Shown here piece by piece: positions 27,054 to 32,988 of a DNA stretch of 64,000 bases. Where the stretch lies: assembly GCA_022601445.1 (NCBI GenBank), contig JAJACP010000002.1, forward strand, positions 26 through 64,025, given 5' to 3'. This DNA is from Chlamydiales bacterium. Its GTDB lineage: Bacteria; Chlamydiota; Chlamydiia; Chlamydiales; JAAKFR01. The first letter of the stretch is position 1. The number at the start of each line of letters is the position of its first letter. The translations under genes and the position numbers were made by a program. The notes under the pieces were generated by a model that was not told where the DNA came from, searched no databases, and was given only the letters and a program-made list of their open reading frames with translations.

Positions 27054-27113
27054 GGGCTACAGAATCTTGAGAGGCTTGAAGTCAAGGTAGTCACAAGAGG
27101 TAAGGTGATACTC
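27054..27113. repeat. left direct repeat of the islet; orphan copy of the 3' end of the metallophosphoesterase gene (attL-like)
   Basis: 54 of 60 nt are identical to 32929-32988. The core 27070-27113 versus 32945-32988 has one mismatch. On the minus strand it still reads EYHLTSCDYLDFKPLKIL-stop. Confidence 0.9.
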
Positions 27114-27286
27114 TATCTGCGATGGGTCTCCTAAAAAATTTATTGTTGTTGATTAAGATAAAAATGAGGAGAAGTGTGTTAATGTAGAATCTAGCTCCCA
27201 CAGATGTGAATCGCTAATATTTATTTGACAACCTTAGAATAGACAGCAACATATTTTTGGAGACTTAGAACTTTCACCCCGCGGAA

Positions 27287-28282
27287 TTAAAAGCCAAGAG
27301 CTCCGCCTCCAACTGGCACTCTCCGGATTCCCACAACTCCACTCAAAGTAAAGTCATAGTAATCAGAATCATACTTATCTTTAAAAACACTTAAACCTTT
27401 ATTAGTGAATGGTCCTACACAAACAGGAAATTTTCCCTGCATCGTCTCAGCACATCGTGTGTAGGGGAATGTATTGGAAGTTTCAAAAAATAGACGGTCG
27501 CCAAACTTTAGAAAGGTCGCCAAAACACAGATGAAGCTTTCTAAACAAGAAGGTAAAGAGTAATCGACTCGACAATCAGCTTGGTGGGCTGAGAATAAAG
27601 CTCTCTGAGCATCATATGTTTTATTCTTGCTGTCAGGGATAACACTACGTGTCATCAAAACCCAGCCGGAGGAAGAAATCGGAATATCTCCAATCTCATT
27701 TTTGATATCTGGAGGAAGCTCTTTTACGCAATCAGCAAGCTTCTGATTATCAGATTCATTCGCAAATCTAATTAATGCATTCAATGACATAGGACAGTCA
27801 TTAATTTTATTAGGTATAAAAACTAAGACATGTGTATCTTCAACCTTCTTGTTTGGAAAAAATGGACACGTCTCCTGCAAAATGCTTTTCAAGCAAGGAG
27901 GTGGAGGCAAATTATCCACTTCCAAGCCAAAGTGATTTTTCCAGTCCTTACTACCAAAAGCACGTCTATCGACATTTTCTATCAGCTCTCTAACTCTCAT
28001 GGCCTCTGCCTCAGTGGGGGAATCCATCCTGGGCTGTACTGCTGACAAATCAACTGATAACTCAACTGATAACTCAAGAACTAAAGCAGACAACGCCTGC
28101 TTCATATCTCCCGCAACTTGAAGTTCTCTACCAATTGACCCAGTACGACTGCACTCTTTTGTGTAAATACACTGTTGAGCAACGTTATAAACCTTTAGCG
28201 AAATCGCTTGAGAGGTAACCGAACACGTAAAATTATAGCCATCAGGACGGGCATACGAGTGTACTTGTTGGACAGGGTTCAT
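27287..28282 (-). CDS. hypothetical 331-aa protein (islet cargo)
   Basis: Long ORF, no SD. PPPP linker. Internal 12-bp tandem (28051-28074) encoding ELSVELSV. Cys/His-rich C-terminal half (..GWVLMTRSVIPDSKNKTYDAQ..PYTRCAETMQGKFPVCVGPF..). No family recognised. Confidence 0.5.
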   Translation of the reverse strand: MNPVQQVHSYARPDGYNFTCSVTSQAISLKVYNVAQQCIYTKECSRTGSIGRELQVAGDMKQALSALVLELSVELSVDLSAVQPRMDSPTEAEAMRVRELIENVDRRAFGSKDWKNHFGLEVDNLPPPPCLKSILQETCPFFPNKKVEDTHVLVFIPNKINDCPMSLNALIRFANESDNQKLADCVKELPPDIKNEIGDIPISSSGWVLMTRSVIPDSKNKTYDAQRALFSAHQADCRVDYSLPSCLESFICVLATFLKFGDRLFFETSNTFPYTRCAETMQGKFPVCVGPFTNKGLSVFKDKYDSDYYDFTLSGVVGIRRVPVGGGALGF

Positions 28283-28304
28283 TTTTTGTTTAGCTCAAAA
28301 ATAC

Positions 28305-28334
28305 ATACTGAGTGCTCTAAAAAACACTCAGTAT
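28305..28334 (-). terminator. hairpin downstream of the AlaX-like gene
   Basis: ATACTGAGTG-N10-CACTCAGTAT. On the minus strand it is followed by GTATTTTTG. Confidence 0.45.
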
Positions 28335-28347
28335 CAATTATTATCGT

Positions 28348-29112
28348 TTATTTAGATTCAGTATCTACTTTAGAGTTAGCAGCTGCCGCAGCTCCAGCAG
28401 CTCCACTCTCCTCTTGAGCAACAACATCATAGCCTATTCTAAGCTCTCCTTTCTTAGCTTTCACATTGCGAATAGTAATACCAATGATTTCAGAAGCATT
28501 TCTGACATGTGTTCCCCCACAGGGATAAGTTTCTAACCCCTCAAAATGAACGCTTCGAGGAGAATTGTCGTTATCTACAATCATCTGAGTTCTTGACTCT
28601 ATTAACTCAGCGACTCTCTTTTCAACGGCTGATTGTAACTCAGTCTTATCAGGCAAAGGTTTGCCTTTGAATACCACAAAAGCCTGGCCATCAGGAAAAT
28701 GGTTACCTTTGTAACCTTGTAGGGCAGGATATAATTCTCCAACGACACTAGATAAAAGGTGTCCACCACTGTGAAGACGAGCGAATAGTGTCCTTTTTGC
28801 AATATCAACAGTTAAGAAAACAGTGCCTGTCAACGCGTCAGCACCATCACTATCCACATAGTGTCGAATTTCTTTCTCAACCTCTTTTAAATGAGTCACA
28901 TCAAAAGTGCAGTCTCCAATCCTTGCTGTTCCTTTATCACTGGGCTGTCCACCACCTTGAGGATGAAAAACTGTTTTATTGGGAACGAAATAAGTACCTG
29001 TATCATCTTTGCCATTGCTAAGAATTGTTGAATCGACACTACTCTTGTAAGTATCAAAATAATAATCTCTTGTGGTTGAATATTCACTTGCACTTGAACT
29101 TGCTGATGTCAT
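28348..29112 (-). CDS. AlaX-like protein (alanyl/threonyl-tRNA synthetase editing-domain, tRNA_SAD family; COG2872-type)
   Basis: FHPQGGGQPSDKG, zinc motifs HSGGH (HxxxH) and CGGTHV. Start set at ATG 29112 (AAGGAG 9 nt upstream). The 76-codon extension in the track is rejected. Ala/Gly-rich C-terminal tail. Confidence 0.8.
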   Translation of the reverse strand: MTSASSSASEYSTTRDYYFDTYKSSVDSTILSNGKDDTGTYFVPNKTVFHPQGGGQPSDKGTARIGDCTFDVTHLKEVEKEIRHYVDSDGADALTGTVFLTVDIAKRTLFARLHSGGHLLSSVVGELYPALQGYKGNHFPDGQAFVVFKGKPLPDKTELQSAVEKRVAELIESRTQMIVDNDNSPRSVHFEGLETYPCGGTHVRNASEIIGITIRNVKAKKGELRIGYDVVAQEESGAAGAAAAANSKVDTESK

Positions 29113-29569
29113 ATTTCTAACTCCTTTTATTTGCTTTAGAAAAAATCGATTACGACTTACTCCACGATGTATCAATCTAAATCTTAAAATTTTTTTGTCT
29201 TCTTTACATGTTCTCCCAAGGGAAGATGGTTGATGACCAGGCAAACAACGATAAGCGACTCTGCAAGCTCTCGACTTTTTCTGAAACGGGGATAAAGTTT
29301 GAGGAGCTCGACGCGCCACAGATCGAATACAGTTTATCATTCAAAATCTCCTGAAAATGTAATTTATAATTTTGTATGTAGACTCCAAATAAATGCAACC
29401 GCAAATTCTTTATTTTTCCTTAACTTTTGTTTTTTAGGCTTAAACCTTTAAAAATCAATATTATAAGAATAAACGAAAAAATTACCCTAAAAAAAGTCGT
29501 TGAACAGAAATTTAAGATCTTATTAAGATTTCTAGTCATTGCAATCGAACCAAACAGGGAGGTTCCTTT

Positions 29570-31873: not shown

Positions 31874-31929
31874 TTGAAGACTCCGTATTAAATTAGAACG
31901 TGAAATTTCAAAAGTTTCGGCAATGGCCC

Positions 31930-32316
31930 TTATTCGAAATCGTCCACACCTTGCAACGGCTGTCGCGAGATGAGTTTTTTTTCACGTGCGATCTTCACAG
32001 CTTCTTTCAAAATTTCAACTTGCAAAGTCTTTTTTCCTAGCATCCTTTCAAGCTCATGCACTTGTTTCTCAAGGGCTTTCACCTCTTTTTTTGAAACTAC
32101 AGCATCTTCACAACCAACTCCAGATAAAGCACCTTCTTCCATATGTCGCCTCCATTGAAATAGTTGGCTAGGACTTATATCATGTTTTCTAGCCACAATG
32201 GAAACACTCATTCCAGGTTGGTAGGTTTGCTCGACAATTGCGCGCTTTTCATAAGCTGTCCAGCGTCTCCTTCTCTGGACTGATGTGACGACTTCGATAC
32301 GATTAGAACTAGTCAT
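31930..32316 (-). CDS. IS2-like transposase OrfA (HTH + leucine zipper)
   Basis: RRRWTAYEKRAIVEQTYQPGMSVSIVARKHDISPSQLFQWRR. Coiled coil EVKALEKQVHELERMLGKKTLQVEILKEA. Slippery A AAA AAA C near the 3' end. Confidence 0.9.
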   Translation of the reverse strand: MTSSNRIEVVTSVQRRRRWTAYEKRAIVEQTYQPGMSVSIVARKHDISPSQLFQWRRHMEEGALSGVGCEDAVVSKKEVKALEKQVHELERMLGKKTLQVEILKEAVKIAREKKLISRQPLQGVDDFE

Positions 32317-32382
32317 ATACCTAGTAATACTCCTATGTCTTAGAGCTGGCTAGGTGGTCCTATTTTTATGGGGGGCACTCCA

Positions 32383-32646
32383 GAGCTGGACCTATGGGCT
32401 TATTCACACAAGGTGGAATTGCGGTTTTCCCGCCCAGGAAAGCCTACAGACAATGCTTTTATAGAAAGTTTCAATGGGCGATTTCGTGAAGAGTGTTTAA
32501 ATCAGCATGGGTTTTTGTCACGGGAAGATGCGGAAGAGTGTATTGAAAATTGGAGAAATGAGTACAATGAACGCAGACCTCATAGTGCTCTTGGGAATAT
32601 TTCTCCTGCAGCCTTTTGGCAGCAACAGGAACACAAGGTCTCATGA
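32383..32646 (+). pseudogene. IS3-family transposase OrfB, 3' fragment
   Basis: ..LDLWAYSHKVELRFSRPGKPTDNAFIESFNGRFREECLN.. (DDE Glu). Continues 30546..31075. Confidence 0.8.
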
Positions 32647-32770
32647 AAAAGAAGCCGAATTTTTGCATTCAAAATGGTCCAGAAAAAGGGGCAAGGTCAA
32701 GTCAAGCTATACAAGAAATTTTTCTGTCCGAAAAATAGGGGCACGATACACAATTTTAGAATCCCGTTGA

Positions 32771-32833
32771 CAAGAGCACTTAAAGGAACAAAAACTAACC
32801 GGTTAGTAGTCCGATTTTATGGAGGCGACTCCG
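32771..32833 (+). mobile_element. solo terminal fragment of a second, diverged IS2-like copy
   Basis: The reverse complement matches the 31076-31140 end of the intact IS (about 6 mismatches and a 2-nt indel). It retains the last 11 orfB-like codons (QEHLKEQKLTG-stop) plus the terminal IR. Confidence 0.8.
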
Positions 32834-32928
32834 CTCATCTCATTCCATAAACGGGAGGACAGGAAGAGGTCTTTTCCCTATTCGCTTTCACATCATCCTC
32901 CAAAATACTTTTCAATAAAATATGCTCA

Positions 32929-32988
32929 GGGCTAGAGGACTTTAAGAGGCTTGAAGTCGAGGTAGTCACAAGAGGTAAGGTGATACTC
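32929..32988. repeat. right direct repeat of the islet (attR-like); forms the functional 3' end of the metallophosphoesterase gene
   Basis: See 27054-27113. On the minus strand it reads EYHLTSCDYLDFKPLKVL-stop. Confidence 0.9.

Follow-up and report, generated by a model that had tools for sequence, protein, structure and literature searches.

Horizontal gain of genes is thought to shape chlamydial evolution, and its mechanics are rarely visible. This study concerns an islet at positions 27054–32988 of a 64-kb window (the whole stretch of DNA that was analyzed: 64,000 nt of contig JAJACP010000002.1, assembly GCA_022601445.1, from a member of the Chlamydiales). The islet lies at the 3′ end of a calcineurin-like metallophosphoesterase (MPE) gene and is bracketed by two copies of that gene end. 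Imperfect direct repeats of tens of nucleotides that rebuild the 3′ end of a gene are the textbook footprint of integrase elements. Such elements, including genomic islands, integrative and conjugative elements (ICEs), integrative and mobilizable elements (IMEs) and cis-mobilizable elements (CIMEs), insert at the 3′ ends of tRNA or protein-coding genes, are bounded by imperfect direct repeats of which the element-proximal one rebuilds the gene, have a foreign composition, and accumulate insertion sequences (ISs); a CIME has no recombinase of its own. A review covers CIMEs and att-flanked elements (PMC5704250). A Campbell-type single crossover, by which circular DNA integrates through a short segment of homology, requires only RecA, for which about 29 nt of identity is near the minimum length for efficient pairing, and yields a hybrid repeat, the insert, and another hybrid repeat. 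Another kind of event is found in rhs loci and in the effector-immunity arrays of Vibrio cholerae's type VI secretion system (T6SS), where homology-facilitated illegitimate recombination (HFIR), as defined in PMC3240628, was proposed to account for orphaned 3′ regions (PMC5361080); the latter paper cites Jackson et al. 2009 (PMC2935791). In these loci a conserved gene part arrives together with new downstream DNA and recombines within that part, the incoming 3′ end replaces the earlier one, which is pushed downstream as an orphan, no integrase takes part, and successive events build arrays at one spot.

The islet is like each of these systems in the features just named. As a scar of gene acquisition it is genuine, fairly ordinary and of a known kind, and it provides a base-by-base record of how an uncultured chlamydia recently gained genes, in which the empty site, a replacement gene end diverged to the level of a sister species, and the displaced native end can all be read. 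Our tentative preference, held at a little less than an even chance, is that the 3′ end of the gene was displaced by homology-anchored recombination (HFIR-like or by a single crossover) with DNA from a related donor, without a dedicated site-specific recombinase.

The repeated gene end and the empty site

One family of 60-nt direct repeats was found in the region, with copies at 27054–27113 and 32929–32988 that are spaced by 5,875 nt and are identical at 54 of 60 positions (90%). A 44-nt core (27070–27113 in the left copy) contains a sole mismatch, A at 27084 versus G at 32959, and its BLAST E value of 4e-18 within the window indicates that the repeat is far beyond chance; the longest exact identity between the copies is 29 nt. 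The right copy (32929–32988, minus strand) is the functional end of the 245-aa MPE gene (32932–33669, minus strand; Pfam Metallophos, 2.5e-16). It consists of the last 18 codons, the stop codon and 3 nt, and joins the MPE body on one side and islet DNA on the other. The left copy encodes the same 18 codons and stop in the same register on the minus strand (EYHLTSCDYLDFKPLKIL-stop), and unrelated sequence with an in-frame stop precedes EYHLTSCDYLDFKPLKIL. This orphaned tail joins the native downstream flank, has an intact reading frame and stop codon, and can be drawn at 27054–27115, because the homology to the MPE gene of a sister species extends 2 nt (TA, 27114–27115) past the 60-nt repeat. 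Five of the six nucleotide differences between the copies are synonymous, and the sixth exchanges V and I. An earlier note on this DNA, made from the letters alone, had described the repeat, its core, its coding content and the pattern of differences in the same terms, and the repeat search and translations bore out each of these points. No tRNA, tmRNA or Rfam feature was found in the islet region.

The MPE gene is the last member of a conserved carAB-pyrBICDEF-glgC-MPE block, whose synteny is retained in the sister species (locus L001, GCA_964350245.1) and in four more distant relatives (L008, L177, L179 and L181; 72–78% identity). In L001, the MPE protein is 93% identical to that of the window and the flanks are 83–85% identical in DNA. 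The site is empty there: the MPE gene is followed directly by the left flank of the window. Positions 1–10741 of L001 align to 43664–32929 of the window and positions 10680–16954 to 27115–20858, and the overlap of the two alignments is exactly the repeat. The window thus holds a 5,815-bp insertion and a 60-bp duplication. The four more distant relatives also lack the islet; in these, carAB-pyr-glgC-MPE is followed by a convergent gene of 331–334 aa and then by an HMA ATPase gene. The islet has therefore been truly inserted, and a relative carries the empty-site allele that the earlier note had proposed to look for. Compared across these relatives, the ancestral order probably had nothing accessory after the MPE gene; an SLFN_AlbA_2 gene and orf484, which now lie beyond the orphaned tail, would have been gained in the common ancestor of the window and L001, and the islet appears to have been gained later, in the lineage of the window alone. 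A literature search on S4CHLAM2, the name in the locus tag (S4CHLAM2_03600) of the Chlamydiales MAG that the window matches, found nothing relevant.

In the direction of the MPE gene, the islet consists of the functional tail, a 96-nt spacer (32928–32833), an IS element (IS-A) split by another (IS-B), a 2OG-Fe(II) oxygenase gene, an AlaX-like gene, orf331, approximately 170 nt of A+T-rich non-coding DNA, and the orphaned tail. Nothing similar to it occurs elsewhere in the window. The cargo (27114–30451) has a GC content of 40.2%, compared with a mean of 46.8% (sd 1.4) in 515 windows of the same size outside the islet, none of which is as low (z = −4.6). The GC content at third codon positions (GC3) is 0.26–0.36 in the cargo and 0.47–0.56 in the MPE gene, glgC and pyrF. 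The foreign composition that had been noticed by eye, as an islet richer in A+T than its flanks, was thus upheld by measurement.

Because the sequence comes from a metagenome-assembled genome (MAG), a contig misjoined through the shared 44-nt core was considered, and all other assemblies of the islet do break inside the IS elements. Nevertheless, the right junction (MPE gene, spacer, IS-A) recurs in three contigs (L005–L007) and the left junction (cargo, orphaned tail, SLFN gene) in three more (L090–L092), all from assemblies of other samples (ERZ23491157, SRR15145662, two contigs of GCA_022599615.1, ERZ23491219 and GCA_022599525.1). None of the contigs of this strain that were searched joins the MPE gene directly to the SLFN gene, and an exact identity of 29 nt at most offers little for such a misjoin. 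The recurrence of both junctions in independent assemblies indicates that the islet is not a mis-join, and we consider an artefact hardly credible.

Divergence of the two tails and displaced tails at other loci

The proportion of differing synonymous sites (pS) between the two tails is 0.44, and that of non-synonymous sites (pN) is 0.02. The pS between the MPE orthologs of the window and L001 is 0.40. Six random substitutions would produce at most one amino-acid change with P = 0.002. Under a null model of duplication followed by drift, in which the orphaned copy is free and the functional copy is constrained, 35% of the differences are expected to be synonymous (P = 0.021 for the observed pattern). 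When the differences are polarized by L001, four changes fall on the orphaned tail, namely three synonymous changes and the V/I exchange (P = 0.031). The equality of the repeat pS with that between species indicates that each tail is an allele with a coding history in a lineage of its own, and that one of them is foreign. This agrees with the view of the earlier note that the copies are two diverged coding 3′ ends and not a slippage duplicate. Since the left copy runs on into the native flank, it is by geometry the resident tail, and the right copy arrived with the insert, on an integrase model as much as on a homology-anchored one. The geometry and the two diverged coding tails thus also support the proposal that the incoming DNA supplied a surrogate gene end that is now in use.

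In an alternative account, the 60-nt MPE end was duplicated in situ when the cargo was inserted, either as a long target duplication or by slippage, and the copies drifted apart afterwards. Direct repeats would flank the insert in this case as well, and the evenly spread differences at one other locus (L100, described below) are compatible with drift. In the window, an orphaned copy should then have drifted neutrally, yet the differences and the changes polarized onto the orphaned tail are mostly synonymous, as given above, and the tail has kept its frame and stop codon at a pS that equals the level between species. Target duplications of 60–200 nt are not known from transposable elements, and the ends of the islet are not IS ends. 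Duplication in situ is accordingly regarded as very unlikely.

L001 could not serve as arbiter of the native tail at 83–89% identity: the right copy differs from it at 4 of 60 positions and the left copy at 7 of 60, both within background. No discontinuity of divergence was seen along the MPE gene. Five of the six differences between the copies fall within 10 nt, a clustering with P = 0.01 over all sites that is weak among synonymous sites (P = 0.08); a mosaic or crossover signal inside the repeat is therefore regarded as weak, and the identical 29-nt block is not treated as proof of a crossover core.

A total of 172 MPE loci were examined. They include 32 chlamydia-like loci (identity of 50% or more, approximately 24 lineages) and 137 from more distant sources; at least 3 kb of downstream sequence is available for 82 of these 137. 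The genome and metagenome scans for MPE contained no relative above 62% identity among the matches listed, and closer relatives were retrieved individually. The repeat boundaries of the window occur in none of the other 171 loci, and no recombinase was found at the site in any of them; the same core beside a recombinase, which the earlier note had suggested seeking in other genomes, was thus not encountered in this set.

A second MPE tail was found in two other lineages only. The first is a metagenome contig (L100, SDBT01056215.1; MPE 54% identical), which carries glgC, the MPE gene, a single 395-aa TPR-repeat gene (2714–3901), and a copy of the MPE 3′ end. Its repeat (2440–2650 and 4000–4210) is approximately 204 nt long and 97% identical, and ends exactly at the stop codon; the five differences are evenly spread, three being synonymous and two non-synonymous. 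The insert has a GC content like that of the host and no recombinase. L100 is a single short contig, and an assembly error may be involved. The second lineage is a relative of 78% identity that is represented by two assemblies (L008, 10700–10783; L009, 3428–3511). Here, directly after the functional tail (CDYLDFKPSLLNI-stop) and in the same frame, comes a second, diverged tail with its own stop codon (CTYLDYKPLIINA-stop); the tails overlap by 42 nt without any cargo, and approximately 390 nt of extra non-coding DNA, which relatives lack, comes after them. The two tails of L008 are identical at 22 of 39 nt (56%) and share 7 of 13 residues, with three conservative changes in addition. Neutral drift to that distance would give as many residue identities with P = 0.002, and the BLOSUM score was reached in 0 of 200,000 simulations. 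On this comparison, the second tail of L008 is best described as a conserved allele.

The overlaps in the three cases are 42 nt (L008), 60–62 nt (window) and approximately 204 nt (L100). Each terminates at the stop codon (+0 to 3 nt) and includes a highly conserved stretch encoding CDYLDFKP, and the points within the MPE gene at which the tails start differ. When 344 open reading frames (ORFs) with a minimum length of 120 aa, taken from 13 loci, were scanned for orphaned tails, only the three MPE cases were genuine. Among the other hits, those in L012 and L014 were traced to tandem repeats within or close to IS elements, and that in L020 was a weak match (42% identity) in a basic, low-complexity tail.

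The proposed route of recombination

The earlier note had interpreted the islet as a site-specific integrative element bounded by attL and attR. In such a decayed element (a genomic islet, CIME-like), an integrase would have recombined an attB in the MPE tail with an attP resembling the 3′ end of the MPE gene, and the recombinase would have been lost later or would have acted in trans. The repeat has the textbook form, and its 29-nt perfect block (44 nt with one mismatch) adjoins a divergent segment, as an att core might. The cargo is low in GC and has accumulated IS elements. Moreover, IS-A has lost its left end and its orfA, which indicates that DNA was deleted inside the islet; this deletion could have removed an int gene, and the suggestion that the IS pile-up stands in place of a recombinase is thereby possible. 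All three tail duplications span the stretch that encodes CDYLDFKP, and no other gene in the scan yielded one. For the islet of the window taken alone, an integrase element is an adequate explanation.

The wider comparison is less favorable to it. No tyrosine or serine recombinase was found among the ORFs of the window, and a six-frame Pfam search of 27054–30600 revealed no integrase, resolvase or remnant of one; here, the earlier note was right that no integrase is present. The only proteins with an rve domain are the IS3-family transposases of the nested IS elements. A degenerate pattern of the core was absent from 2.9 million viral contigs. In plasmids, the cargo had no nucleotide match, and the 2OG protein matched only 2OG oxygenases of approximately 30% identity. 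No cognate element with a matching integrase and att site was found in the MPE loci, viral contigs or plasmids searched, and no other MPE locus shows reuse of the site with fixed boundaries. L100 looks recent, given its 97% identical repeats, yet it contains a single gene that is not a recombinase, in DNA of native-like GC. The interior deletion of an integrated element would rarely leave two tails with no DNA between them, as in L008, and overlaps as different as those of the three cases are not expected of one att site. In addition, two of the cargo genes form a module that comes elsewhere without any integrase. Nothing positive beyond the repeat itself thus speaks for an attL/attR pair, and the step from direct repeats at a gene end to an att pair was not supported by these comparisons; we would call a decayed integrase element quite possible without being probable, and homology-anchored displacement is favored over it.

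The variable overlaps, their shared end at the stop codon, and the lack of a recombinase fit homology-anchored recombination better than a fixed att site. Such recombination also accounts for the foreign functional tail on the resident gene body, for the resident tail left downstream, and for the location beside a variable region. The donor, a related chlamydial lineage, would have contributed a DNA fragment with its own MPE 3′ end, the 96-nt spacer, the IS elements, and the 2OG oxygenase, AlaX-like and orf331 genes. On one side, it would have recombined by homology within the carAB-pyr-glgC-MPE block, which is syntenic in all of the relatives; DNA downstream of the MPE gene differs between lineages, and the homology would for this reason have ended at the stop codon. 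The other side may have been joined illegitimately, by HFIR, 60–62 nt upstream of the resident stop codon. Alternatively, the same topology would result from a RecA-dependent single crossover of a circularized fragment with an MPE tail. The product in either case would be the resident MPE body with the donor tail, followed by the cargo and then by the resident tail, orphaned beside the native flank. The insertion spot is the border between the block that is conserved in all relatives and a variable region in which the SLFN gene and orf484 had accreted before. The route and the donor are proposed from these patterns, and they remain the conditional part of the account.

The comparison with described systems has limits on each side. 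In rhs and T6SS displacement, the tips that are displaced are toxin or immunity modules of differing function, the swap of which is favored by selection. In the islet, the peptides encoded by the two tails are the same but for the V/I exchange, the gene is an ordinary phosphoesterase, and the cargo is unrelated to it; HFIR is here a deduction from the arrangement. The islet differs from integrase islands and CIMEs in the points already given, having no recombinase, no cognate element with the same att site and no recurrent use of the site with fixed boundaries, and its sister cases differ greatly in repeat length, one of them being without cargo. A Campbell-type crossover needs a circular intermediate that already carries an MPE tail, and no such plasmid or circle was found in the plasmid search.

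Several points weigh against homology-anchored displacement. Only 2 nt of microhomology (TA, 27114–27115, shared with the L001 allele) is present at the illegitimate joint of the window; the corresponding joint of L100 reads AATTTTC|ATG versus AATTGTT|ATG. A donor locus, in which the MPE gene would be followed directly by TGAGCATATTTT, was not found among the matches listed in the genome and metagenome scans. Experimentally, HFIR is a rare event, documented in naturally transformable bacteria (PMC5361080, PMC3240628), and an HFIR route in these chlamydiae presupposes DNA uptake. The restriction of displaced tails to the MPE gene among the 344 ORFs in 13 loci could mean a site-specific process. 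Finally, 29–44 identical nt beside a divergent tail also resemble an att core, although the clustering of differences among synonymous sites is weak (P = 0.08). If homology-anchored displacement is nevertheless the correct reading, 3′-end displacement extends beyond polymorphic toxin loci and can bring unrelated cargo beside ordinary genes, and direct repeats at the 3′ end of a gene are not automatically att sites.

Cargo, insertion sequences and neighboring DNA

The inner left end of the islet (27116–27286) is A+T-rich and non-coding, is joined to the orphaned tail at 27113–27115, and has no similarity elsewhere in the window. It is followed by orf331 (27287–28282, minus strand), residues ~105–321 of which form a domain of a large uncharacterized family. 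A word-indexed protein search returned only orf331 itself, and the gene was at first taken for an ORFan; exhaustive phmmer overturned this, recovering 1,923 cluster representatives of the domain (~210 aa) at 30–40% identity. The domain often occurs in tandem, with 2–6 copies in proteins of up to 2,362 aa, and sometimes stands alongside TPR or GTPase domains. Its residues that never or hardly ever vary include His151 and Cys277 of orf331. Searches of orf331 against Pfam, NCBIfam, PHROG and PADLOC gave no match, and neither did a sequence profile search of the PDB. An alignment-based AlphaFold2 (AF2) model has a predicted local distance difference test (pLDDT) score above 90 over residues 100–320; a single-sequence AF2 model, with a pLDDT of 38, was unusable. 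A Foldseek search of the model against the PDB gave nothing significant, the best hit being FGE-like PvdO/OvoA (E = 0.25).

The AlaX-like gene (28348–29340, minus strand) encodes a protein with an alanyl-tRNA editing domain (tRNA_SAD and tRNA-synt_2c; AlaXM at 1.3e-27, below the cut-off); in other assemblies the gene is annotated with a start at 29112 and a product of 254 aa. Divergent from it lies the 2OG-Fe(II) oxygenase gene (29570–30451, plus strand), which is WelO5-like and belongs to a rare family with 18 homologs, the best at 49–52% identity. The oxygenase bears an NCBI name after BesE. The two genes are neighbors in the window (28348–30451), in L093 (10001–11643), in L095 (405–2047) and on the P0124 contig (JGI 3300056388). 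In two other chlamydia-like contexts the oxygenase gene sits immediately upstream of the AlaX-like gene, in one of them beside an IS481-type transposase, and the AlaX-like protein of the window is 41% identical to the partner gene product in L093. This recurrence in different contexts suggests that the pair is a conserved accessory module that relocates. Speculatively, and judging from the predicted domains, the pair could link an amino-acid-modifying oxygenase with tRNA proofreading. The description of the islet contents as orphan cargo was therefore only partly right, since the pair is found elsewhere as a module and orf331 belongs to a large, uncharacterized family. The islet thus brings two uncharacterized items to attention: the conserved 2OG-oxygenase/AlaX-like pair, and a large His/Cys domain family without a Pfam model or a structural match.

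The rest of the islet is occupied by IS elements. The left piece of IS-A (30452–31075, plus strand) is the N-terminal part of an IS3-family orfB (rve, HTH_21 and transpos_IS3); its left terminal inverted repeat and orfA are missing, the 5′ truncation lying beside the 2OG gene. The right piece (32383–32832, plus strand) contains the C-terminus of orfB (rve_3) and the right terminal repeat, which matches that of IS-B at 92%. IS-B (31076–32382, minus strand) is an intact element of 1,307 bp that was inserted in orfB of IS-A. It belongs to the IS2 group of the IS3 family, as seen in its orfA (HTH_Tnp_1) and orfB (HTH_21, rve as the DDE domain, and rve_3; IS2 TnpB at 2.4e-74), in its TGGAGT... terminal inverted repeats with ends at 31076 and 32382, and in its 5-bp target duplication (GAGCT). 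The 92% identity of the right ends of IS-A and IS-B over 60 nt accounts for a 60-nt inverted repeat in the islet (31077–31136 and 32773–32832). No second copy of either element was found within the window. Both elements are passengers here, and the 60-nt direct repeat is not an IS target duplication. The earlier note had spoken of IS debris; IS elements are indeed present and the outer one is 5′-truncated, while the one nested in it is intact. Tandem repeats in or next to IS transposase genes were also seen in two other Chlamydiae MAG contigs; these are exact and of 700 nt in L014 (1–1000) and of approximately 270 nt in L012 (13624–14176).

The 96-nt spacer between IS-A and the functional tail (32833–32928) may derive from the MPE-downstream DNA of the donor or from an attP arm. 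Local alignment of the spacer with native downstream loci was not significant (P = 0.07), and a candidate remnant of an SLFN-like 3′ end, based on a 22-nt match to the SLFN 3′ end and a KRIGK.P reading, was dropped at the same value.

Outside the islet, in the native flank, an array of five 9-mers ATTGCACCA (TGGTGCAAT) lies at 26987–27052 on the plus strand, starting just past the old stop codon; five copies were found versus 0.63 expected. Arrays of 4–6 copies of TGGTGCAAT within ~5 nt of the MPE stop codon occur in three lineages, the others being at 10743–10828 in L001, 10744–10791 in L177 and 4051–4098 in L178. One copy in L177 is inverted, giving the palindrome AATTGCACCATTGGTGCAATT. In L177 convergent genes flank the array and an SLFN gene is not in the vicinity; the array is thus not simply an SLFN operator. 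It was not found in L008, L179 or L181 and, as an array, in none of the other loci retrieved. Conceivably, the MPE 3′ end and this array constitute a dedicated gene-capture hotspot of environmental chlamydiae, served by a trans-acting or unrecognized recombinase that is not encoded in the inserts and that repeatedly inserts DNA and replaces the tail. Such a hotspot would account for the occurrence of all three tail displacements at the MPE gene only and for the accretion of the SLFN gene and orf484 beside the array; we consider it improbable.

The older accretion spans 24129–26965. The SLFN gene (25625–26965, minus strand; SLFN_AlbA_2, HATPase_c_4 and wHTH domains; GC3 0.37) is common to the window and L001, is not present in L008, L177, L179 or L181, and lies at the same spot as the islet. 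For its insertion together with orf484 no scar was detected, and the window contains no further degenerate MPE tail. The counterpart of orf484 in L001 is annotated in two pieces (262 and 89 aa) and is possibly a pseudogene. In the conserved block, an ORF of 81–85 aa lies antisense to the 3′ end of pyrC, just before pyrD, in L001 (5831–6088, minus strand) and at the same position in L005, L008, L177, L179 and L181; it is either a conserved small gene or a recurrent artefact of gene calling.

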